DNA of 64,000 bases from Candidatus Poribacteria bacterium. GTDB taxonomy: Bacteria > Poribacteria > WGA-4E > WGA-3G. The notes beneath the pieces are model-generated. The model was not told where the DNA came from. It did not search any database and worked only from the letters and a program-made list of their open reading frames with translations. The DNA lies in NCBI GenBank assembly GCA_965197475.1, contig CBDANF010000003.1, forward strand, positions 2,679,223-2,743,222. The letters run 5' to 3'. The position numbers and the translations under genes were made by a program. Position 1 is the stretch's first letter. Every line of letters begins with the position of its first letter. Positions 4,480-14,703 of this stretch are shown one piece after another.

Positions 4480-5247
4480 ATGCTAGTACTTTATTTGGCA
4501 ATTTCATCTGTAACCGTGCTGCTTGGTGCAGGATTAGCAATTGTTTTTCGTGATAAACAGACTGAATTCCGATTAATTTTCGGTTTTACAGCCGGTGCAG
4601 TGTTCGGCTTTGTCTTAATGCTAATGGTCCATCTTGTGTGGGAAGAAAGCGACCTAATGAAGGTTAATTACCTCATGATTTTGGTGATGTGGGTAGGCTT
4701 TCTGTTGATTTGGATGTTGGAGAATCTTACACATCGGATTCGTGAACGTTTTGGTAATCAGACAGAAGTACATAAGAAAAATGTATGGGGAGTCAATTTA
4801 ACACTTATCGGTTTATCAATTCATGCAATTGTGGATGGTTTCAATCTCAGTACTGCGGCGAAAGATCCTACAGATGGCATCGTACTTGCTCTTGGAGTAC
4901 TACTTCATCGTTTGCCGGTAGCGACAGTTATAACTACAGTCTTACGTCACAATTACGGGGTTATACGGACACTGTTGCATCTCATTCCGCTCATAATGGC
5001 TCCGTTTGTAGGGGCATTCATGGGGGAAAGTTTACAACAAGGTGTTTTTATGGAGTTGACAGAGTATCTAACAGCTTTTGCAGTAGGGACATTATTACAT
5101 GTTGTGATGGACGGTTTACGAGGGGGTTGTGTGCCATCAGAAGAAAAGATTAGTTCTTCAACCAAAATAGCATTTGTTATTGGGTTGATTTTAACTTTAT
5201 GTGCTATGTTTTTTATTCCTGGGTTAGAGCATGAGCATGTACATTAA
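4480..5247 (+). CDS. ZIP-family divalent metal transporter
   Basis: The 255-aa polytopic membrane protein carries His/Asp-containing TM motifs (LSIHAIVDGFNL, LLHRLPVATV, LLHVVMDGL) typical of ZIP/ZupT-like permeases. It is divergent from the TonB receptors. Confidence 0.7.
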   Translation: MLVLYLAISSVTVLLGAGLAIVFRDKQTEFRLIFGFTAGAVFGFVLMLMVHLVWEESDLMKVNYLMILVMWVGFLLIWMLENLTHRIRERFGNQTEVHKKNVWGVNLTLIGLSIHAIVDGFNLSTAAKDPTDGIVLALGVLLHRLPVATVITTVLRHNYGVIRTLLHLIPLIMAPFVGAFMGESLQQGVFMELTEYLTAFAVGTLLHVVMDGLRGGCVPSEEKISSSTKIAFVIGLILTLCAMFFIPGLEHEHVH

Positions 5248-7756
5248 AACTTCAGCAATACGACCTGAGATAAACGTATATCCTATTTTGCAGACGGTTT
5301 TCTGTTTTCTAATATTAGCACTGCAGGTGGATGCAGCAGAGATTCCGATTGTTGTATCGGGTGAACCCAAGGCAACCGTGCAAATTGGTGCTAATGTTTC
5401 AACGCAAGAGCAATTTGCTGCATCCGAAATCCAGAACTTTATTGAAACATTCACTGGTACTCAGCTTGAACTGCGTACCAATCAACAGTCTACAACAACG
5501 CAGACGGTTATAGTTTTAGGTACACCTATCACAAATCCAACGATTCGAACACTTCAGGAGAAGGTTGGTTTTGAATTGCCAGAAGAAATTGGCGAGGAAG
5601 GTTATCAGATTAAATCCGTTGACCTTGGGACAGAAATCGTTATCGTCGTGGCTGCCCACACATCACGCGGTGTAATTTACGGCGCGTATGCCTTTATTGA
5701 GGCATGCATCACCGCTTTGACAGGACTCAAACCTGTCCATCCAGAAATAGCAGTCGCACGTTTGCCTACACTGCGCGTGCCCTTTCTGGACGAAACATCC
5801 CGCCCATTTTACCCGATTCGAGCAGTGTTAGAAATAGATGATCCAGATTGGCTCGCAAGACAACGTGTGAATATGAGTGGTGGTGAAGGTGTTTGGACCG
5901 GAACCGGAATTGAAGACGGATTTGGCACCGCTTTCAAATATGTGGATACATCCGCTTTTTCTGCGTTACAAGATGAGCCGCGTGCACAACGATTAGAAAG
6001 GATTCAAACGCTCAAAGACCGTTTTACTGCTTTAAATAACCGTGGTATTGATGCCTATCTTTTTATGTATGTGACCGGTGAACCTACAGAGGCACTTATT
6101 AAAGCACGTCCAGATATATTGGGACCAGAGGTATTGTACGGGGCATCCAGGAATGAGGTTTCTTATCGACCGTTTTGCTGGTCAAAACCCGAATTCCACA
6201 CGCTCGCACGGCAATTGACACAGGAAATTGTGAAAACCTACCCTGCTCTCGCTGGATTTCACCTACGATCTTGGGGACACGAGACGCGGGCGTGCAATTG
6301 CCCTGAATGTGGTGACCGCTCCCCAGAAGGGCAAGCGAAACTATGGGAGGTATATTTCACGATTATCAAAGCAGCGCGGGAAGTACGTCCGGATTTTAAG
6401 TTTTATATTTCGGGATATGATAGGAGTTGGCTGCAAGACCCAGATGGCGACTATGCACGCCAATTACCAAAAGGTACTATTTTTTCACAGAAGTGGGGAG
6501 CAGACGGGGAACCGGTCATTGATCCAAATATCCCTATTTCACAAATGAATGCGCTCGGAGAGATGGGACACCGATTCATTGTGCTTTCACATGATGTTGA
6601 AGAGGTAATGCCATTCTGGATGCTTGAAAGCGATCTGTTTGTACAAGGTGTACGCCAACTTGCCAACTCACCTGAAGTTATTGGGTTAAGCGGATTCACT
6701 GTGCAAGGCGCAGCGCAAGGCTTAGGATATCTTGACCGACTCGTGAGTGCTCGTATTAATTGGGATATCCAACTTGATCATATCCAACTATTTCGAAATG
6801 AATTAGTGGCTCGCTATGGAAACACAAAAGCAGCAGAGTTGATTCTAAGTGCCCTACGTATCAATGAATGGACATTGGCGAGCTATTTTTCCGATTATGC
6901 AAGTTCCATCTCCATAGGTGGCAGCTACGGCAGTGGGTCAGCTGGTTTAGCAACACGGTTTTGGAACCTGATTGGTAGCAAAGCTGTGGAAAATACGCTG
7001 GCAATTCCAGAATTAAAAATCGCACAGACTGCTGTCCAACGATTCACAAATCTTCTGGCACCGCAGCTACGAGCAGCGAATGAGATGCAAGAAGCATACG
7101 AAATCGCGGAACCGGTAGACCTTGAAGCATCACAAGATTTGCGCGATGCAATGCACTTAATGAGGTTGTGGGTTTTGCTGTTTCAGAGTCGCGAAAAACT
7201 GGTGGAAGCTATTGCACTCGGCTATGAAGTTAACACTGGTAGTGCTATTAATGCTAAACTTGCTAGTGCAGCGGAGTTCTCAAGATCAATACAACCTTTG
7301 ATAAAGCAGTTTGAAGAATTTGGTCCTCTTTTTGGTTATTCGCATCAGACGAATGAGGTAGAATTGTTGAATACCTTAAAAGAAGAGGTTGCATGGCTAT
7401 CAAGTTTCGACTATCGGTTGCTCCAAAAACATGACGAAAGTTTTTCACCCGATGAAACCGCCTTTCGTATCTGTGAAGTCTACAACTATCCGAATCCACT
7501 TAAGCGCAAAACGACATTTACCTATCTGTTGACACTTGATGCAGATGAGGTGAAGATAAACATTTATACTGCATCAGGACGGCGTATCCGTGTATTGAAG
7601 GATGTTTCCGCGAAAGAGGGGTATAACGAGGTGACGTGGAACGCTCTTGACGCTGAAGGGACACCGCTTGCAAATGGGGTTTATTTTTACAAAATTCGTG
7701 CTGTCCTCGGAGATAAAAACGTTGAAAGCATCCACCGAATGGCTGTGATAAGGTAG
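5231..7756 (+). CDS. Secreted DUF4838/GH20b-like protein with C-terminal FlgD-Ig/T9SS-like sorting domain
   Basis: The 841-aa ORF has a signal-like N-terminus (VFCFLILALQVDAAE). Its lead module (IVVSGEP...FAASEIQNFIETFTG...GYQIKSV...RGVIYGAYAFIE) resembles DUF4838/GH20b-type domains, recognised from memory. The C-terminal ~80 aa (YNYPNP...ANGVYFYKIRA) matches the tail of the 962-aa WD40 protein. Confidence 0.55.
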   Translation: MSMYIKTSAIRPEINVYPILQTVFCFLILALQVDAAEIPIVVSGEPKATVQIGANVSTQEQFAASEIQNFIETFTGTQLELRTNQQSTTTQTVIVLGTPITNPTIRTLQEKVGFELPEEIGEEGYQIKSVDLGTEIVIVVAAHTSRGVIYGAYAFIEACITALTGLKPVHPEIAVARLPTLRVPFLDETSRPFYPIRAVLEIDDPDWLARQRVNMSGGEGVWTGTGIEDGFGTAFKYVDTSAFSALQDEPRAQRLERIQTLKDRFTALNNRGIDAYLFMYVTGEPTEALIKARPDILGPEVLYGASRNEVSYRPFCWSKPEFHTLARQLTQEIVKTYPALAGFHLRSWGHETRACNCPECGDRSPEGQAKLWEVYFTIIKAAREVRPDFKFYISGYDRSWLQDPDGDYARQLPKGTIFSQKWGADGEPVIDPNIPISQMNALGEMGHRFIVLSHDVEEVMPFWMLESDLFVQGVRQLANSPEVIGLSGFTVQGAAQGLGYLDRLVSARINWDIQLDHIQLFRNELVARYGNTKAAELILSALRINEWTLASYFSDYASSISIGGSYGSGSAGLATRFWNLIGSKAVENTLAIPELKIAQTAVQRFTNLLAPQLRAANEMQEAYEIAEPVDLEASQDLRDAMHLMRLWVLLFQSREKLVEAIALGYEVNTGSAINAKLASAAEFSRSIQPLIKQFEEFGPLFGYSHQTNEVELLNTLKEEVAWLSSFDYRLLQKHDESFSPDETAFRICEVYNYPNPLKRKTTFTYLLTLDADEVKINIYTASGRRIRVLKDVSAKEGYNEVTWNALDAEGTPLANGVYFYKIRAVLGDKNVESIHRMAVIR

Positions 7757-7766
7757 TGCCTTCATA

Positions 7767-7840
7767 AAATTCGTAGGTCGGGTAGCATAGAATTCGTAGG
7801 TCGGGTAGAGCGCAGCGAAACCCTTATGTGTCAATTTGGT
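7767..7840. repeat. REP family 2 (GTAGGTYGGGTAGAGCG..GCGAAACCC), partial plus full copy
   Basis: The sequence aaattcgtaggtcgggtag occurs twice, followed by agcgcagcgaaacccttatgtgtcaatttggt. Related copies lie at 8167-8206, 14291-14338, 20044-20096, 20229-20276, 51561-51600 and 55253-55291, in both orientations. Confidence 0.8.
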
Positions 7841-7959
7841 GTATAATACCAAATTAACGCGATTTGTAGCGCGAGGTCCCCGTGCCTTGCAATGCTAACT
7901 GCTACGTAGAAAACTAATAATCAAGTTAATTTGGTATAAGTTAGATTACGTAAGTTTTG

Positions 7960-8116
7960 TCTGAACCAGGATTTTCAGGATTTCCAGATTTTCAGGATTA
8001 GCAACTTCTCATCTATATGTTTTTCTCAAGATAGACAGCAATGTTCATCCGCCCCCAAAACATTTATAGCCTAAACAATCCTGGTAATCCGATAATCCTG
8101 AAAATCCTGGTTCAGA
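7960..8116. repeat. 157-bp element bounded by perfect 23-bp inverted repeats (MITE- or hairpin-like)
   Basis: tctgaaccaggattttcaggatt (7960-7982) is the exact reverse complement of aatcctgaaaatcctggttcaga (8094-8116). The interior holds further aatcctg/caggatt motifs. Confidence 0.7.
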
Positions 8117-8176
8117 AAACATTACGCCTAACTCACAAAAAACACATTCATTTCCTTAAATTGATACCTACGGGTT

Positions 8177-11100
8177 TCACTTACGCTTTACCCAACCTAC
8201 GAACTCACTTGCTTTCGTCTCTGGAAGCGCATAGACTCCCCGCCGCACCCGGACGATCTCGCCTTCATCTAAAAGTTGTTTGAGCTGATTTCCTATCGCC
8301 TGAGGACTACTATCAATCGCTGCGACGAGTGATGATGTTGTTTTCTCTCGACCAGAGGCAAGAAGAAAGAGGATCTGCTCTCGGAAAGTAACGCGAGGAA
8401 TGTTACCACCCCGCAGCTCCTGCAACACACGGTTCGCTTGCCTTGAGGAGCATCCTAACACACGTTCCACTTCTTCCCTGCTGGATTCAGCAGTTAGGTT
8501 AGCCCGTTCCGCTTCAAAACGTTCACGTGTGCGGACGGTTTCCTCAAGTTTATGTAACCCACCAGCGATCTCAAAGTCTTCCCAGTCAAAAAGAAGTGTT
8601 TCCGGTCTATCAGTGATGTCCGGCAGTTCAATGTTGTTGAGCAGCATTACCGTTTTACCTTTCCTACGGTTCAGTCCAAAGTATCCGACAATCTGTGTGA
8701 GTAACCCCGCGATATTTTGATCATATACCCTTTGTATGCGTTCATCTATAAAGTAATCAGTCCACATTTCTTGAGACAACATTTCTCTTTCATAATTAAG
8801 CGGTTTTTCGTCGTTTCCAAACAACATTTGCGCGTGGTGGCAGAGTGTGTCTTGCGGCCAAAATGGCGTGCCGACTATCCATAAGACCTGGACAGCTTCA
8901 ATATGTGTCTCTATCTTGTGCAACTTTTTATAATCCGCTACAAAACAGACGTTCTGCTTTGCTGTCAGGTCCGCTAACGTATCAATAATTGGTGTATCTG
9001 TGGCAATCGCGTGTTTTATGCTCGGGTCTCTATCAATTTCTGCGCGGATACCTAAAAAGTAACGTTCTCCTAATTTAGACAACTCGGTAACGTCCGAGTT
9101 GAAATCATAGTTTAGAATTTCATGTAGCGATTTGCTATTTGTGCGGATCTGAAAAACGTTGTTACCTGGCACCCATGCTGTCGGTTCAACACGAATAACA
9201 TCCATTTCTTCATCCGGGAACACTTTGCGAAGCTGCTGATCGGAGAGGTATGTTGATATTAATAAGAGACGTTTGACGTTTGGATGCAGCTTGGGTGGTA
9301 TCCAAAACTTCAGATATTTATCGTCCCACTGCATCGGAGCATCAGCATCCCGCAGATAATGCGCAAAGAAACGCTGCAACTGATGCCAATACGTCCAATT
9401 TGGATCACGACAGACGGTGGGAAAAGAATCTATTTTCTCTACGGTTTGGAGATCCAGGATTCCTAATGCGGCGGCTTCTGCCATCTGCATCGGGATACAG
9501 ATATCCTCGTTAGGAGGTAAAGGTCGCGATTCGGAGATCGCTCCTACAGTAGGAGGTAAAGGTCGCGATTTGGAGATCGCTCGGACAGCTTCCCGACTGT
9601 GGAGTGGTAAAATGGGCAGCTCCATTGCGCGCAGTCTATCTTCAGCATTCGCGTCCAAAGGGATGTGTGCCGTTGCGCCGCCGTGAAAGTCAATTGCGTA
9701 ACGTGCTAATTCTGTTCCTGTTTTGGTGTCAACAATCCCGCGCGCCACAACTTTGCCCTGTACATTAATGTAACACATCTGTTGAATTATCTCAGCTGCG
9801 TGTTGTTGGAACGCTTCGACTACAGCGCGAACTGGTCCGACCGGATTACTATATGGGTTGCTTTGTGTTTCAATCGCATTCATTAAAGCTACGGCAAAGT
9901 TGCCCAAAACATTTCCCCGCCAGTTGACGACCCATTCCTCCACGACTTTTCTTGATAATCTATATTCGGGAAACAGGTAACTTATTGTTGTTATACGTTC
10001 ATCAATGATACAGATATGTTCCGGTTCATCAGTGGAACCCAATATCTGTTGTAACAGGTATGTGTATTGTGGATCCAGAAACAGTTTCCAGATTGACAAT
10101 ATTTGTGCGTTTGTGCGTTGCAATGCAAGCGGTTGTGATAGATACCCGCGTTCTTGGCATGCTGTCCAAACGGGACACTGTGGACAGATACTTTCACTTG
10201 CATTGCCACCCTTTTCCTCAAACGCACTGAACCGCTCAGGATCCTCACACACATTGCCGTGTTGGAAGGGATTTGTCATGCGGACATCTACCGGTATATC
10301 TTTCACCTGCTCCCACTGGTGAAAGATATACCGCCTGCGGAAAAAAGAGGACAGTTTTTTTGATCGGTATCGTTGTTCTGTTGCTTCTGAGATATATGAG
10401 TCGGGTATATTTAGGCTGGTTGCATGGTTGTTCAAAAGATAGTCTTCTGTTTCGGTATTCGTTAATATATTTGCTTCGGTAGCCGTGAGTGCGAGAACAC
10501 GTGTCCCGCGCTTCAAGATACGTTGTAGCTGCGCTGAATGCTGTTGTAGTGTTTTATGGACCTTTGGTGGTGTCTGCTGCTTTTGAAGTTTCGGCGGCAA
10601 ACGTTTTATTGCCAATGGACTTAAGTGTCCCTCCCGAATGACGAGTATTTTTTCGTTGATAGGTGTTGGCATCGAAATGCCGGTGTCATCCCATATAGCT
10701 GTTATTGGCACAGCATATATTGGAAACTCGGTATTTGGTGTAGCCGCGCGCACCCATACAATGTCCTGGTCCTCCCATAGCGACACGTACACATCGTTGT
10801 GCGTCCAGTAGTGAAAACCGTTTGCTTCTCGTTCATAAGAAAAACCACGTTTCAAAAACGCTTCTTTCGCAAGATCAAGATTTTCTGAACCAAGGGATGG
10901 TAGGGCAGCGGTATCAGTTTTTAGTGCGTCTTTTAGGAATTTTTCTTGAGGTGATTCAGGTGCGTGAAGTGCAGCACGGAGGCTATTAATAGGTGCAAAA
11001 ATCACCTCTTTGGCGATGATAGGTGGCACTAACAGATTACCAAGCAGAATCTCATACCGCATATCCCAGCGGCTGTAACCCTCGTTCCCACGTAATTCCA

Positions 11101-11689
11101 AGTAAATGTCCCGGTGGTTCGGGTTTTCTGGCGTTGGCTTGTGCTTATAGATGAAAAATTTTGCTTCATCGGTGTTCGGATGCAGGTAATCTTGGATTCG
11201 GCAAGTGAACCGAAGTCCGCCGGATTTTGTTATCGTCAACAATGGGGCGGCAGTCGTGTTAATGAGTGCTTCAATACAAGTAGAAACAGCTTCTGGTTCG
11301 GCACAAATCGCGTCATATTTAAATTCAAAGTCGTGCCATCGCGCACTATCACGTTGGGAGGGGATGCCGGTATATATCTGAATTCCCCATGAGGCATACC
11401 ACTGTTTCATTCGCCAATCTTCAGCACTTTGCCGCTTCAAGAACCTATCACCACCAAAATCTCGTGGACCTTGATCGTTTTCAGGCGCATGGCCTATCGG
11501 CATAAAGGAGATATCTGCATTCTCAAGTTCATCAAGTGTCAACGGATTGCTGCGTACACAATGCACCTTAATGCAATACCGAAAACGTTTGTATAATGCT
11601 GTTGTTACCACTGTTCTGCGTTGCCGAAGTGATTCTCTTTCTGCATGCCGTTGGTGACAACGTTCAAAAATATCTTCTAAAACTTTCAT
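8177..11689 (-). CDS. Large orphan protein: AEP/PrimPol-like N-terminal domain, Cys-cluster, C-terminal winged-helix DNA-binding domain
   Basis: This is an uninterrupted 1170-aa ORF. The N-terminal ~240 aa follow the primase-polymerase motif order (WGIQIYTG ... WHDFEF ... TITKSGGLRFTCR ... IYLELRGNEGYSRWD). A Cys cluster sits mid-protein (CEDP...CPQCPVWTAC). The C-terminus LVAAIDSSPQAIGNQLKQLLDEGEIVRVRRGVYALP looks like MarR-type wHTH. The last residues (EFVGWVKRK) run into a REP family 2 copy. Function is not established. Confidence 0.5.
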   Translation of the reverse strand: MKVLEDIFERCHQRHAERESLRQRRTVVTTALYKRFRYCIKVHCVRSNPLTLDELENADISFMPIGHAPENDQGPRDFGGDRFLKRQSAEDWRMKQWYASWGIQIYTGIPSQRDSARWHDFEFKYDAICAEPEAVSTCIEALINTTAAPLLTITKSGGLRFTCRIQDYLHPNTDEAKFFIYKHKPTPENPNHRDIYLELRGNEGYSRWDMRYEILLGNLLVPPIIAKEVIFAPINSLRAALHAPESPQEKFLKDALKTDTAALPSLGSENLDLAKEAFLKRGFSYEREANGFHYWTHNDVYVSLWEDQDIVWVRAATPNTEFPIYAVPITAIWDDTGISMPTPINEKILVIREGHLSPLAIKRLPPKLQKQQTPPKVHKTLQQHSAQLQRILKRGTRVLALTATEANILTNTETEDYLLNNHATSLNIPDSYISEATEQRYRSKKLSSFFRRRYIFHQWEQVKDIPVDVRMTNPFQHGNVCEDPERFSAFEEKGGNASESICPQCPVWTACQERGYLSQPLALQRTNAQILSIWKLFLDPQYTYLLQQILGSTDEPEHICIIDERITTISYLFPEYRLSRKVVEEWVVNWRGNVLGNFAVALMNAIETQSNPYSNPVGPVRAVVEAFQQHAAEIIQQMCYINVQGKVVARGIVDTKTGTELARYAIDFHGGATAHIPLDANAEDRLRAMELPILPLHSREAVRAISKSRPLPPTVGAISESRPLPPNEDICIPMQMAEAAALGILDLQTVEKIDSFPTVCRDPNWTYWHQLQRFFAHYLRDADAPMQWDDKYLKFWIPPKLHPNVKRLLLISTYLSDQQLRKVFPDEEMDVIRVEPTAWVPGNNVFQIRTNSKSLHEILNYDFNSDVTELSKLGERYFLGIRAEIDRDPSIKHAIATDTPIIDTLADLTAKQNVCFVADYKKLHKIETHIEAVQVLWIVGTPFWPQDTLCHHAQMLFGNDEKPLNYEREMLSQEMWTDYFIDERIQRVYDQNIAGLLTQIVGYFGLNRRKGKTVMLLNNIELPDITDRPETLLFDWEDFEIAGGLHKLEETVRTRERFEAERANLTAESSREEVERVLGCSSRQANRVLQELRGGNIPRVTFREQILFLLASGREKTTSSLVAAIDSSPQAIGNQLKQLLDEGEIVRVRRGVYALPETKASEFVGWVKRK
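9511..9588. repeat. In-frame 39-bp tandem duplication (x2) inside the 1170-aa gene
   Basis: taggaggtaaaggtcgcgattcggagatcgctcctacag is followed by a near-identical copy. This encodes the protein repeat ISKSRPLPPTVG / ISESRPLPPNED. The unit ends in the ...ctcctacag motif seen in intergenic REP elements. Confidence 0.8.
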
Positions 11690-11766
11690 GATGTCCGCCT
11701 TTTCCTACTGTAGGGTGGGTAAAGTGTAACGTAGATATTTTTGTGGGAGGCGTTTTGAACGCCGAT

Positions 11767-13163
11767 ACTTTCTTGTATAGGACGGACGCATTTTCTCTTA
11801 AAGTCCCCCTGCATAAGGGGGACTTAGGGGGTTAAAAACACGGAAATAACGATTTTGAACTGCGGGATGGACGCATAAGTGGTAGAATCCTTGATGGCAT
11901 CTGCCAGTTTAACCCCCTAACCCCCTTATCAAGGGGGAATGCGTCCGTCCTTTTAACCCCCCTAACCCCCCTTATCAAGGGGGAATGCGTCCGTCCTGTT
12001 GTACTACCTTACTTTCTTGTATAGGACGGACGCATTTTCTCTTAAAATCCCCCTGATAAGGGGGACTTAGGGGGTTAAAAACACGGAAATAACGATTTTG
12101 AACTGCGGGATGGACGCATAAGTGGTAGAATCCTTGATGGCATCTGCCAGTTTAACCCCCCTAACCCCCCTTATCAAGGGGGAATGCGTCCGTCCTTTTA
12201 ACCCCCCTAACCCCCCTTATCAAGGGGGAATGCGTCCGTCCTTTTAACCCCCCTAACCCCCCTTATCAAGGGGGAATGCGTCCGTCCTGTTGTACTACCT
12301 TACTTTCTTGTATAGGACGGACGCATTTTCTCTTAAAATCCCCCTGATAAGGGGGACTTAGGGGGTTAAAAACACGGAAATAACGATTTTGAACTGCGAG
12401 ATGGACGCATAAGTGGTAGAATCCTTGATGGCATCTGCCAGTCTAACCCCCCTAACCCCCCTTATCAAGGGGGAATGCGTCCGTCCTTTTAACCCCCCTA
12501 ACCCCCCTTATCAAGGGGGAATGCGTCCGTCCTTTTAACCCCCCTAACCCCCTATCAAGGGGGAATGCGTCCGTCCTTTTAACCCCCCTTATCAAGGGGG
12601 AATGCGTCCGTCCTGTTGTACTACCTTACTTTCTTGTACAGGACGGACGCATTTTCTCTTAAAATCCCCCTGATAAGGGGGACTTAGGGGGTTAAAAACA
12701 CGGCAATAACGACTTTGAACTGCGAGATGGACGCATAAGTGGTAGAATCCTTGATGGCATCTGCCAGTCTAACCCCCCTAACCCCCCTTATCAAGGGGGA
12801 ATGCGTCCGTCCTTTTAACCCCCCTAACCCCCCTTATCAAGGGGGAATGCGTCCGTCCTGTTGTACTACCTTACTTTCTTGTATAGGACGGACGCATTTT
12901 CTCTTAAAATCCCCCTGATAAGGGGGACTTAGGGGGTTAAAAACACGGAAATAACGATTTTGAACTGCGAGATGGACGCATAAGTGGTAGAATCCTTGAT
13001 GGCATCTGCCAGTCTAACCCCCCTAACCCCCCTTATCAAGGGGGAATGCGTCCGTCCTTTTAACCCCCCTAACCCCCCTTATCAAGGGGGAATGCGTCCG
13101 TCCTTTTAACCCCCCTAACCCCCCTTATCAAGGGGGAATGCGTCCGTCCTGTTGTACTACCTT
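11767..13163. repeat. Nested tandem repeat array: 5 macro-units (244-326 bp), each with 2-4 copies of a ~46-bp hairpin sub-repeat (14 in total)
   Basis: Macro-units start at 11767, 12011, 12302, 12628 and 12873. Each has a left arm ggacggacgcatt..ccccctgataaggggg..agggggttaaaa and a ~73-bp near-invariant core. It then carries n copies of ttaacccccctaaccccccttatcaagggggaatgcgtccgtcct (n = 2,3,4,2,3) and a linker gttgtactaccttactttcttgtata. There are no unique spacers. Confidence 0.95.
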
Positions 13164-13582
13164 TAAATTGACACCTATAGGCAAAGCGTAAGCGAAACCC
13201 GTGAAATGCACGTGTGGCATTCCGCCCGTATGGTATTCTGCATGATTCATCCAAATCAACGCTGAATGCGCGTTCGGTTTCCGGACCGAACCGCATTCGG
13301 TGCTAACAGGGATATTTAACCAACTTCTTACATGTTCTTGTGCGTTGATGTGGACAAAAGCTACACGCAAAATCATGCAGAATACCAAACGCGCATTCTG
13401 TCACGCGGTTGTCGGCAGAGAAACCCAAGGACTCCCCTACAATGTTAAACAAGGCGAAATGCCAAATTAACACCGATTCCCCTATAATGTGATAAATTGC
13501 TGAGTTTCCGGTTGTTCCAACTAACTTATAGACTGTTGATCGGTAAGCTTAGGCAAGTATACCTACCGTCGTCTTATATCTT

Positions 13583-13704
13583 CAGGACTTACGCATTCCC
13601 CCCTTGATAAGGGGGTTAGGGGGTTAAATAGGCAGAATTTGGTGCTTTTAACCCCCTAAATCCCCCTTATCAGTGGGACTTTTAAACACATTGCGTAAGT
13701 CCTG
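13583..13704. repeat. MITE-like palindromic element, family 1 (TIR CAGGACTTACGCA)
   Basis: It starts caggacttacgcatt and ends ttgcgtaagtcctg. The interior ccccttgataaggggg-ttaggggg-ttaaa is mirrored on the right arm. Sibling copies lie at 22625-22745 and 26085-26206. Confidence 0.8.
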
Positions 13705-13974
13705 ATCTTATAGTAAAATCTGTAATTATCTGGACACTGCTGTAGCGTCCACTTTCAGTTTGCGCAAGGACGACACAAACTAAAAGTTTGTGCTACAAAA
13801 TATGCGGTAGGAACTGTTTCCCAACTGGACCGATAACAATGTCCAAGTAATTCTAAAATCTACTATAATATATTAACACAAAACCTAATTTTTATCAAGG
13901 TTTTTACATTTATGGTGAATTAACGTGAGCTCGGTGTCCGAGATGTGAATTTTTTAATTCTTGAATTCTACTTT

Positions 13975-14063
13975 CACAGCCACGGTAGGTGCGGTTTTCA
14001 CAGCCACGGTAGGTGCGGTTTTCACAGCCACGGTAGGTGCGGTTTCCTAACCGCACCATAGGC
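13975..14063. repeat. 24-bp tandem repeat x3 ending in a REP family 4 palindrome (ggtgcggtttcctaaccgcacc)
   Basis: cacagccacggtaggtgcggtttt occurs three times, followed by ctaaccgcaccataggc. Related palindromes ggttcggtttcctaaccgaacc (about 39405-39430) and ggagcggttaggaaaccgctcc (about 39511-39532) occur elsewhere. Confidence 0.85.
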
Positions 14064-14290
14064 ATTAATTTAAAAAATGTCTGTGTTTTTATAAACATTG
14101 CTCAATGCGTATGATGATTGAAACTGTCCCATATTTAGCCCCGCCAAATGCGCTTGGCAGAATACGCGTATGGTATTCTGCATGATTTGGCGGGGTTCAA
14201 GAGACTGTTTGGGACTGTTTTCTGGACACATTCCGCACCGCTGGTGATGCTATCGTCACAAATCAGTATCTTTTTTGCATATAGCACACT

Positions 14291-14338
14291 AAATTGACAG
14301 TTATGGGTTTCGCTACGCTCTACCCAACTTACGAACTC
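14291..14338. repeat. REP family 2 copy
   Basis: aaattgacagttatgggtttcgctacgctctacccaacttacgaactc, near-identical in layout to 20229-20276. Confidence 0.75.
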
Positions 14339-14703
14339 AAAAATGTCAAATTCTCACATAAAATGTAGAATTTTCACATCAAATGCAGAATATTCGCAAA
14401 AAATGTGTGTTTTTTGTAATTTTTACTTGACTTCTAACGTATAATAGTATACAATATGTCATGTAATTCATTTTAAGACATACATATTGTATAATAATGA
14501 AAAACTTAATTTGTTTAATATTAAGTTTAATGTTATAATTAATCTGTGTTCTATATGAGACTTCAAGTGACGGAGTAGCGAACCAGAACCTTGAACGCAC
14601 ATAAAATTAGGTATTGGTAAGTCCATACAACATAGAAAAACTGATAAGTTCCGTTATGGAGTCCCATTTATGTTATTTAATGTAAAGACAAATAAAAAAT
14701 AAT

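Follow-up and report, generated by a model that had tools for sequence, protein, structure and literature searches.

The stretch of DNA analysed here (the window) comprises 64,000 nucleotides of a Candidatus Poribacteria genome (assembly GCA_965197475.1, contig CBDANF010000003.1, positions 2,679,223 to 2,743,222). On its minus strand, at positions 8177-11689, lies a single intact open reading frame (ORF) of 1170 codons plus stop, which is the gene under study; the features within it are given in window coordinates and are all on the same strand. The host is a sponge symbiont with a 5.7-Mb genome in three contigs, and the gene is on the 4.17-Mb contig. A gene with GH67N, FlgD-Ig and T9SS-tail parts (the glycoside-hydrolase-like, or GH-like, gene) is convergent with it, and beyond 3.3 kb of repeats a giant LTD gene is transcribed divergently. 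The gene descends from a replication enzyme of mobile DNA that joined a primase, an iron-sulfur (FeS) helicase and a DNA-binding tail. The analysis shows a four-module scaffold in which the folds and the FeS cysteines are kept and the Walker A lysine and both motif VI arginines are lost. The explanation that we favour, with somewhat more confidence than doubt, is that the product is a mobile-element replication protein which has been domesticated and enzymatically disabled, and which now serves to bind DNA independently of ATP.

The sequence-only reading of this DNA had described the product as an orphan, which it is not. Of the candidates scored in a word-seeded HMMER search, 1,333 were homologous to it at E ≤ 1e-3, the best 120 being 53-84% identical to the protein over the full length, and the gene is one of four full-length paralogues in its own genome, the products of the other three being 51-53% identical to it. 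Few of the homologues are named, and every named one is from Candidatus Poribacteria. A survey of 61 genomes of the phylum placed the proteins in two genera, both of one family, where 23/24 and 9/10 genomes have them with 1-25 matches each; outside those genera there were only two weak matches. No paper describing this Poribacteria protein family was found in the literature, and a scan for promoters and terminators gave nothing above chance. The four motifs on which the N-terminus had been called primase-polymerase-like (GIQIYTG, HDFEF, SGGLRFTCR and LELRGNEGY) are all present in the ORF.

The sequence-only reading overlooked a helicase fold in the middle of the protein. Residues 346-1045 (8555-10654) are modelled as an XPD/Rad3/DinG-like superfamily-2 (SF2) helicase core consisting of two RecA-like lobes, an FeS domain and an arch domain. 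When this core was compared with the PDB using Foldseek, it matched Thermoplasma XPD (9p55, E 6.9e-11; 4a15, E 8.1e-9; 2vsf, E 1.3e-8) and CasDinG (8e2w, E 8.1e-7) with probability 1.0 each, and yeast Rad3 in the pre-initiation complex was also matched at probability 1.0. The fold is shared with these proteins over ~750 aligned columns, as are the four-Cys cluster inserted in the first motor lobe and the arch-like insertion, and the DE of motif II is kept; on the predicted structure, residues ~346-1045 are an XPD/DinG-type SF2 helicase fold. The cluster, which had been noticed from the letters as a Cys4-like group in mid-protein, consists of C481, C502, C505 and C511 within a domain at residues 478-513 (10151-10258), and its place between motifs Ia and II is the same as in XPD/DinG. 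All four cysteines are present in 112/112 full-length family members, and C502, C505 and C511 are invariant in a 15-sequence alignment that includes remote relatives. Because the helicase-core model matches XPD/DinG structures, the cluster is predicted to be the FeS domain of a helicase of this type.

The N-terminus required a more diverse alignment before it could be modelled with confidence. The first AlphaFold2 (AF2) run, on the whole protein with 26 close homologues, gave a mean predicted local distance difference test score (pLDDT) of 67.5, and of only 40-60 at the N-terminus. Searching 1.84 billion representative proteins with an N-domain profile yielded only 172 matches at E ≤ 1e-3, among them relatives of full length (14-28% identity) as well as proteins of ~300 residues that stand alone, and an alignment enriched with the stand-alone relatives gave an N-domain model (residues 1-262, 10904-11689) with a pLDDT of 83.5. 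In the BFVD database this model matched phage proteins named 'DNA primase/polymerase, bifunctional, N-terminal' (Foldseek E 8.8e-10, probability 1.0, TMq 0.41), and the named entries among the 27 BFVD matches at E ≤ 1e-3 were nearly all primase-polymerase proteins. In the PDB, 11 of the 12 top matches were archaeo-eukaryotic primases (AEPs), including NrS-1 PrimPol, LigD-Pol, CAPP Prim-Pol and MPXV E5; these matches were weak, with E values in the range 0.02-1 and the best at 0.024. An AEP (PrimPol) fold is supported for the N-terminus by this modelling, and the phage matches uphold the primase-polymerase-like fold that had been suggested from the motifs. The small alpha/beta domain that follows, at residues 263-345 (10655-10903), is, on the alignments (A3 and A5) and the AF2 secondary structure, a vestigial C-H-C-C zinc ribbon; such a ribbon follows the primase domain in remote relatives, and its metal ligands are gone in this copy.

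The C-terminus, at residues 1046-1170 (8180-8554), consists of a three-helix helix-turn-helix (HTH) followed by an ArsR/MarR/AbiEi-like winged helix, as seen with Pfam, PADLOC and Foldseek. The Pfam matches (AbiEi_4, E 7.7e-5; HTH_5, E 3.8e-4; and HTH_20) are all below the curated cut-offs, AbiEi_4 scoring 23.2 bits against a cut-off of 25, and PADLOC AbiEi models match the same 30-60 C-terminal residues at ~3e-4. With Foldseek the last ~125 residues matched the winged helices of SqrR, ZitR, AdcR and CzrA, and together with the sub-threshold Pfam matches this bears out the MarR-type winged HTH (wHTH) that had been read at the C-terminus. The likeness to the AbiEi, ArsR and MarR regulators is confined to the wHTH fold of the C-terminal ~70 residues and to weak profile matches below cut-offs; unlike in those regulators, the wHTH here is the tail of a 1170-residue protein and has no adjacent AbiEii-type toxin. 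An AbiE toxin-antitoxin system was also considered and rejected, as the AbiEi match is below cut-off and the neighbours are the GH-like and LTD genes, with no AbiEii nucleotidyltransferase.

Remote relatives with intact motifs provide the reference against which the losses in this protein can be read. Their N-domains have D-x-E at positions 122/124 (P0001 numbering; LDFEY, DIDIE), TKSGGxR, invariant E198, R207, D209, R211 and Y212, and the C-H-C-C zinc ribbon, and their helicases have Walker A TGxGK[STN], the Cys cluster, DE or DD in motif II and QxxGRxR in motif VI. In the 8177-11689 copy, AEP motif I (WHDFEFK, residues 118-124, 11318-11338) departs from hhhDhD/E, with E122-x-K124 at the positions where intact relatives have the invariant D122-x-E124, and with an alternative pair, D120-x-E122, one register earlier. 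At the motif II position (KSGGLRFTCR, residues 155-164, 11198-11227) the expected sxH is absent, Arg160 standing where AEPs normally have His. The sequence-only reading had noticed that this His was missing and concluded that the domain may be divergent or inactive; the absence is real, but the arginine is found in all relatives, including those in which all other motifs are intact, and it is therefore a clade-wide trait and not decay. Published AEPs deviate here as well: the DR0530-like family has Arg or Lys in this place, and in several further AEP families the His is less strictly conserved (PMC5862659). The likeness to the DR0530-like family is one of a single motif, a positively charged residue in place of His. 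For motif III (hD/E) the candidates are D209 (112/112 family members) and E198 (99/112). The suspicion that the N-domain is degenerate was correct.

The helicase motifs have fared similarly. The Walker A position (residues 398-412, VLALTATEANILTNT, 10454-10498) has no Gly-Lys-Ser/Thr: the sequence at the motif is ATEANILTN, only 10/112 family members have a Lys there, and GK[ST] is absent from the whole 1170-aa protein, in agreement with the earlier statement that no Walker A motif is visible. Helicase motif II (ICIIDER, residues 559-565, 9995-10015) retains the Asp-Glu pair of DEAH, as does this copy's clade, and lacks the Ala-His. Motif VI (QIVGYFGLNR, residues 999-1008, 8666-8695) is degenerate, both of the arginines of the QxxGRxR of remote relatives (QxxGRxxR in the general motif) having been lost; the second is replaced by Gly in 95/112 family members. 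Since there is neither a GK[ST] P-loop nor a motif VI arginine, no ATPase activity is expected.

In a tree that we built from 77 family members, with four remote relatives as the root, the Poribacteria clade was monophyletic. The losses at its base are those of E124 and of the second motif VI Arg; Walker A, motif II and position 122 were lost later, independently in different clades. The clade of the 8177-11689 copy has no P-loop and keeps the DE of motif II, whereas the own-genome paralogue p2 shows the reverse. Such mosaic loss is expected if ATP hydrolysis, and probably priming, lost importance early and selection continued to act on the fold, the FeS ligands and the DNA-binding parts. Different own-genome paralogues keep different subsets of the motifs; p2 (G000:C3:3310412-3313801), for example, has a canonical Walker A (ETGAGKTY), whereas its motif II reads DQ and its motif I has N at position 122. 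These paralogues form a domestication series that can be compared directly.

The ratio of nonsynonymous to synonymous divergence (dN/dS), determined by the Nei-Gojobori method for the gene against six orthologues, was 0.27-0.36 overall and 0.12-0.31 in the wHTH region, which had the lowest value in five of the six comparisons. The gene is thereby shown to remain under purifying selection, with dN/dS of ~0.3. If the gene were instead a functionless relic drifting to a pseudogene, then the independent decay of catalytic motifs across clades, the truncation, splitting or stop codons seen in some family copies, and a dN/dS three times that of the neighbouring gene would all be accounted for. This is very improbable, however, as the reading frame (1142-1231 codons) is intact in all seven orthologues, dN/dS is ~0.3 in every domain with dS up to 0.56, and a set of 26 homologues with 56-85% identity to the 1170-aa protein has more than 100 invariant positions.

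Several results weigh against our interpretation of the protein as a disabled replication protein that binds DNA. No Pfam, NCBIfam or PHROG AEP profile and no Pfam DEAD_2 or Helicase_C_2 profile matched the 1170-aa protein, and hhalign of the helicase part with the DinG of the same genome gave a probability below 1% and was used only as a hint of collinearity. The sequence-level tests for AEP and XPD/DinG (Pfam, PDB profile searches and hhalign) all fail, so both folds rest on predicted structure; across Pfam, NCBIfam, PHROGs, PADLOC, PDB phmmer and PDB profile searches the C-terminal wHTH alone was recognised, and the Pfam Prim-Pol family PF09250 was not found in the 61 genomes of the phylum. 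The dN/dS of ~0.3 is also relaxed in comparison with 0.09-0.10 for the neighbouring GH-like gene. Finally, D120, E122 and D209 are kept in all seven orthologues and could form a metal site shifted by one position on the beta-strand face, which leaves room for primase activity at this predicted site.

The last of these points is the basis of an alternative to which we assign a minor share of the probability, namely that the protein is a live primase-polymerase with a D120/E122/D209 metal triad and Arg160 in place of His, in which the dead helicase serves as a DNA-binding scaffold, for example in repriming or damage tolerance. Such an enzyme would be consistent with the presence of D120, R160 and D209 in 112/112 family members, with the near invariance of K155, S156, G157 and G158, and with the acceptance of D-x-E as a variant of AEP motif I (PMC5862659), to which the positively charged motif II residue of the DR0530-like AEPs can be added. 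However, the pair that is invariant in intact relatives is D122/E124 and not 120/122, and E124 is replaced by K, T or S in every Poribacteria family member. About 39% of the paralogues have no acidic residue at position 122 (Y, H, N or V instead), as would be expected after catalysis had been lost, and the zinc ribbon that usually assists priming has no ligands.

The chromosomal context also bears on what the protein does. In three other Poribacteria assemblies (L007, L021 and L018) the orthologues, at 75-84% identity, have the same two neighbours, the GH-like gene and orf255, the arrangement is also found in G024, and the LTD gene is part of the synteny in all four. This shows that the gene holds a stable syntenic chromosomal position, at the same site in at least four other species. 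The sequence-only reading had proposed that the protein serves to replicate or mobilise an integrated element or plasmid remnant, and that it might even be the trans-acting factor for the family 1 miniature inverted-repeat transposable elements (MITEs). An active element protein would fit a domain order that is that of mobile-element replication proteins, the position of the gene between repeats, and the absence of gene and repeats from the matching site in G040, G037 and G027. We nevertheless consider this proposal highly improbable: Walker A and motif VI are lost, the neighbours on the 4.17-Mb contig are chromosomal, the site is syntenic across species, and no integrase, tRNA, partition gene or Rfam RNA was found near the gene. 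Intact relatives are located in mobile elements, and the 8177-11689 copy is not.

The repeats do not rescue the proposal. The two that had been reported beside the gene are both there, as a 157-bp element with perfect 23-bp terminal inverted repeats (TIRs) at 7960-8116 and a 1.4-kb nested tandem array at about 11767-13163, in which 46-bp units are arranged inside larger units of ~290 bp (~245-326 bp). The TIR element is a dispersed repeat and does not belong to the gene's system; the orthologous site in L007, with a convergent gap of only 52 bp, lacks it, and it is therefore a later arrival here. The array is not tied to the gene family. Genome-wide BLAST gave 63 matches for the 46-bp unit, 62 for the TIR element, 117 for the MITE and 225 for the macro-unit, and beside the other three paralogues the 46-bp unit was absent or single and the other repeats were absent or rare. 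The repeats are thus dispersed throughout the genome and do not track the paralogues, contrary to the idea that they belong to an element of the gene. The suggested link to the family 1 MITEs also fails, as G027 and G056 have no family match and yet have 21 and 32 MITE matches, and G054 has 25 protein matches and 5 MITE matches that are weak and partial. A role as the autonomous partner (transposase) of the MITE family was rejected on the same failure of co-occurrence in these three genomes.

Because G040, G037 and G027 have the GH-like gene with no family member adjoining it, the site is polymorphic for the presence of the gene within the genus, through either gain or loss. In G040 (L109, G040:C1 14063-16231, compared with window positions 7756-14369) the GH-like gene and the LTD leader are homologous to those of the window and are separated by ~1.45 kb of unrelated sequence, which replaces 6.6 kb of the window (the 3.5-kb gene and 3 kb of repeats).

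The ancestry of the protein is seen from its intact relatives, which adjoin integrase, ParA and phage genes, and to this extent the earlier suggestion of a mobile-DNA replication protein holds for its origin. P0413 (DIDIE, GTGKS, IVDDY, QALGRAR) is encoded in an island with phage integrase, methyltransferase-HNH (MTase-HNH) and T5orf172 genes and DDE_5 (L100). P0433 has the same type of helicase with the N-domain swapped for a BT4734-like_N plus PriCT_2 primase, and its gene is surrounded by small ORFs and by RadC, Sipho_Gp157, ParA and ThsB_TIR genes (L101). P0270 is a stand-alone N-domain gene of 322 residues, with DIDIE and the zinc ribbon, which is followed by a separate P-loop helicase-like protein of 856 residues with an HTH_23 tail (L099 8001-11629). 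The primase module therefore pairs with different helicases and the helicase with different primases, and such module swapping is the behaviour expected of mobile-DNA replication modules. Replication proteins of mobile elements have as their standard layout an AEP followed by a zinc-binding (ZnBD) or PriCT module, a helicase and a winged helix (PMC5862659). The intact relatives were not found in collections of mobile elements, by tblastn of GenBank phages and PLSDB plasmids or by a pattern scan of IMG/VR. P0426 resembles P0433 in keeping the XPD-like helicase with the BT4734-like_N/PriCT_2 primase swapped in, and P0178 and P0257 are metagenome proteins in which an N-domain of the stand-alone type is fused to the P-loop helicase-like protein. 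A kinship with P0381, a separate SF2 helicase beside a stand-alone N-domain gene, was also considered, and hhalign showed no relation.

For a domesticated replication protein of this kind, ATP-driven translocation would have been lost, and priming most probably with it. What would remain is DNA binding without translocation, in the manner of those parts of a replication protein that recognise the origin and hold the DNA. The winged helix and the HTH could provide sequence recognition, the helicase-shaped groove and the primase cleft could hold the DNA, and the FeS cluster may serve for structure or redox sensing. Candidate cellular roles are that of a regulator, or interference with related mobile elements.

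The second of these roles can be taken further, to a defence in which the dead replication proteins recognise invading relatives at their origins or replication intermediates and block them, with the diversity of the paralogues tracking that of the invaders. A variation of 0-25 matches per genome with tandem arrays, a relaxed dN/dS with mosaic decay of catalytic motifs and retention of the DNA-binding parts, and variable presence at a syntenic site are features that such a defence would be expected to have. The intact relatives are in mobile elements, and Poribacteria are among the hosts of the distant relatives, although P0498, the one whose motifs were checked, has a different type of helicase. 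However, the paralogues have no recurrent partner or effector gene as a neighbour, and the only frequent class of neighbour is at background (51% versus 45%). In addition, the PADLOC matches are confined to the generic wHTH, and the wHTH is the most conserved part in five of the six orthologue comparisons and not the fastest evolving. We therefore regard defence as unlikely, though not negligible. The broader proposal, which we hold to be similarly doubtful, is of a new kind of immunity or regulation, in which dead primase-helicases with intact FeS clusters and diversified DNA-recognition tails would bind invaders' origins or intermediates and perhaps sense redox state; separately, the intact relatives would be an undescribed class of Rep proteins combining an Arg-type AEP with an XPD-like FeS helicase.

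The protein can be compared with two known systems, the primase-helicases of the pRN1 ORF904 type (PrimPol-PV1 supergroup; Kazlauskas et al. 2018, PMC5862659) and the XPD/Rad3/DinG helicases. The former have the same order of AEP, Zn/PriCT module, helicase and C-terminal winged helix, and the intact relatives of the 1170-aa protein are likewise found in integrase- or ParA-bearing elements. However, the helicase of that supergroup is of superfamily 3 (SF3; D5/RepA/MCM-type) and not an XPD/DinG-like FeS helicase of SF2, and the 8177-11689 copy differs further in being chromosomal and syntenic, in lacking Walker A and motif VI, in its vestigial Zn module and in having no Pfam AEP match. In contrast to XPD/Rad3/DinG, the protein has no GK[ST] P-loop or motif VI arginines and no detected sequence-level similarity, and it carries a primase domain and a wHTH fused to the core. 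It has the folds of both systems and lacks the sequence matches and motifs of both, and it works like neither, because its motor is dead. The helicases catalogued with mobile-element primases are SF3, DnaB/RepA and MCM, plus a remote UL9-like SF2 group (PMC5862659), and the fusion of an AEP primase to an XPD/DinG-type FeS helicase is a new pairing that is not among the layouts described there. More than 1,000 sponge-symbiont proteins labelled 'hypothetical' or 'HTH regulator' are now open to domain description.

Some further observations concern the family and the region. Family members occur in tandem or near-tandem arrays (G054:C1:904720-919048, G049:C38:142841-150414 and G029:C14:137284-157125), with up to four in a row in G054, and there are shortened variants of 780-1000 residues without the middle of the protein. 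Divergence at four-fold sites across window positions 4480-11689, measured against L007, L021 and L018, differs greatly from gene to gene: for orf255 it is 0.07 versus L021 and L018 and 0.91 versus L007, for the GH-like gene 0.53-0.63 and for the primase-helicase gene 0.22-0.30. The region is thus a mosaic of recombination tracts, and the low synonymous divergence of the primase-helicase gene was rejected as a special property, since adjacent genes span 0.07-0.91. A functional link between the family and divergently transcribed genes for secreted or eukaryote-like proteins (LTD, LRR, WD40, sulfatase and Laminin_G_3) was also rejected, as such genes lie beside 51% of the loci and 45% of random sites.

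Within the gene, two in-frame 39-bp units encoding (D)VGAISESRPLP-type repeats are found at residues ~701-727 (9511-9588), in a low-confidence loop of the arch region. The number of copies varies among orthologues, from none in L021 and one in L009 to two in the 8177-11689 gene, two or three in L007 and ~6 in L018, and the unit is a coding minisatellite or an insertion hot spot of the repetitive extragenic palindrome (REP)-like kind. Outside the gene, a 53-nt inverted pair with 85% complementarity (window 7763-7842 and 14286-14338) brackets the gene and the array. One of its arms is just after the GH-like gene and the other is in the LTD leader, and both resemble a dispersed REP-like unit (GTAGGTCGGGTAGAGCG...).

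One clade of paralogues has an in-frame TGA, in the context R*KPR[MI]YLWEQVK, at exactly the codon that other clades have as TGG (Trp452), and the rest of the frame is intact. It is present at 12 of the 41 loci where the site was found. The clade includes the own-genome paralogue p4 (G000:C3:2507083-2510484; L004 217-3660, minus strand) and also L034, L038, L040, L043, L058, L062, L065, L068, L073, L077, L081 and L085. This pattern points to programmed read-through or recoding, as candidate explanations, rather than to decay. The 8177-11689 copy has AGG (Arg) at codon 452.

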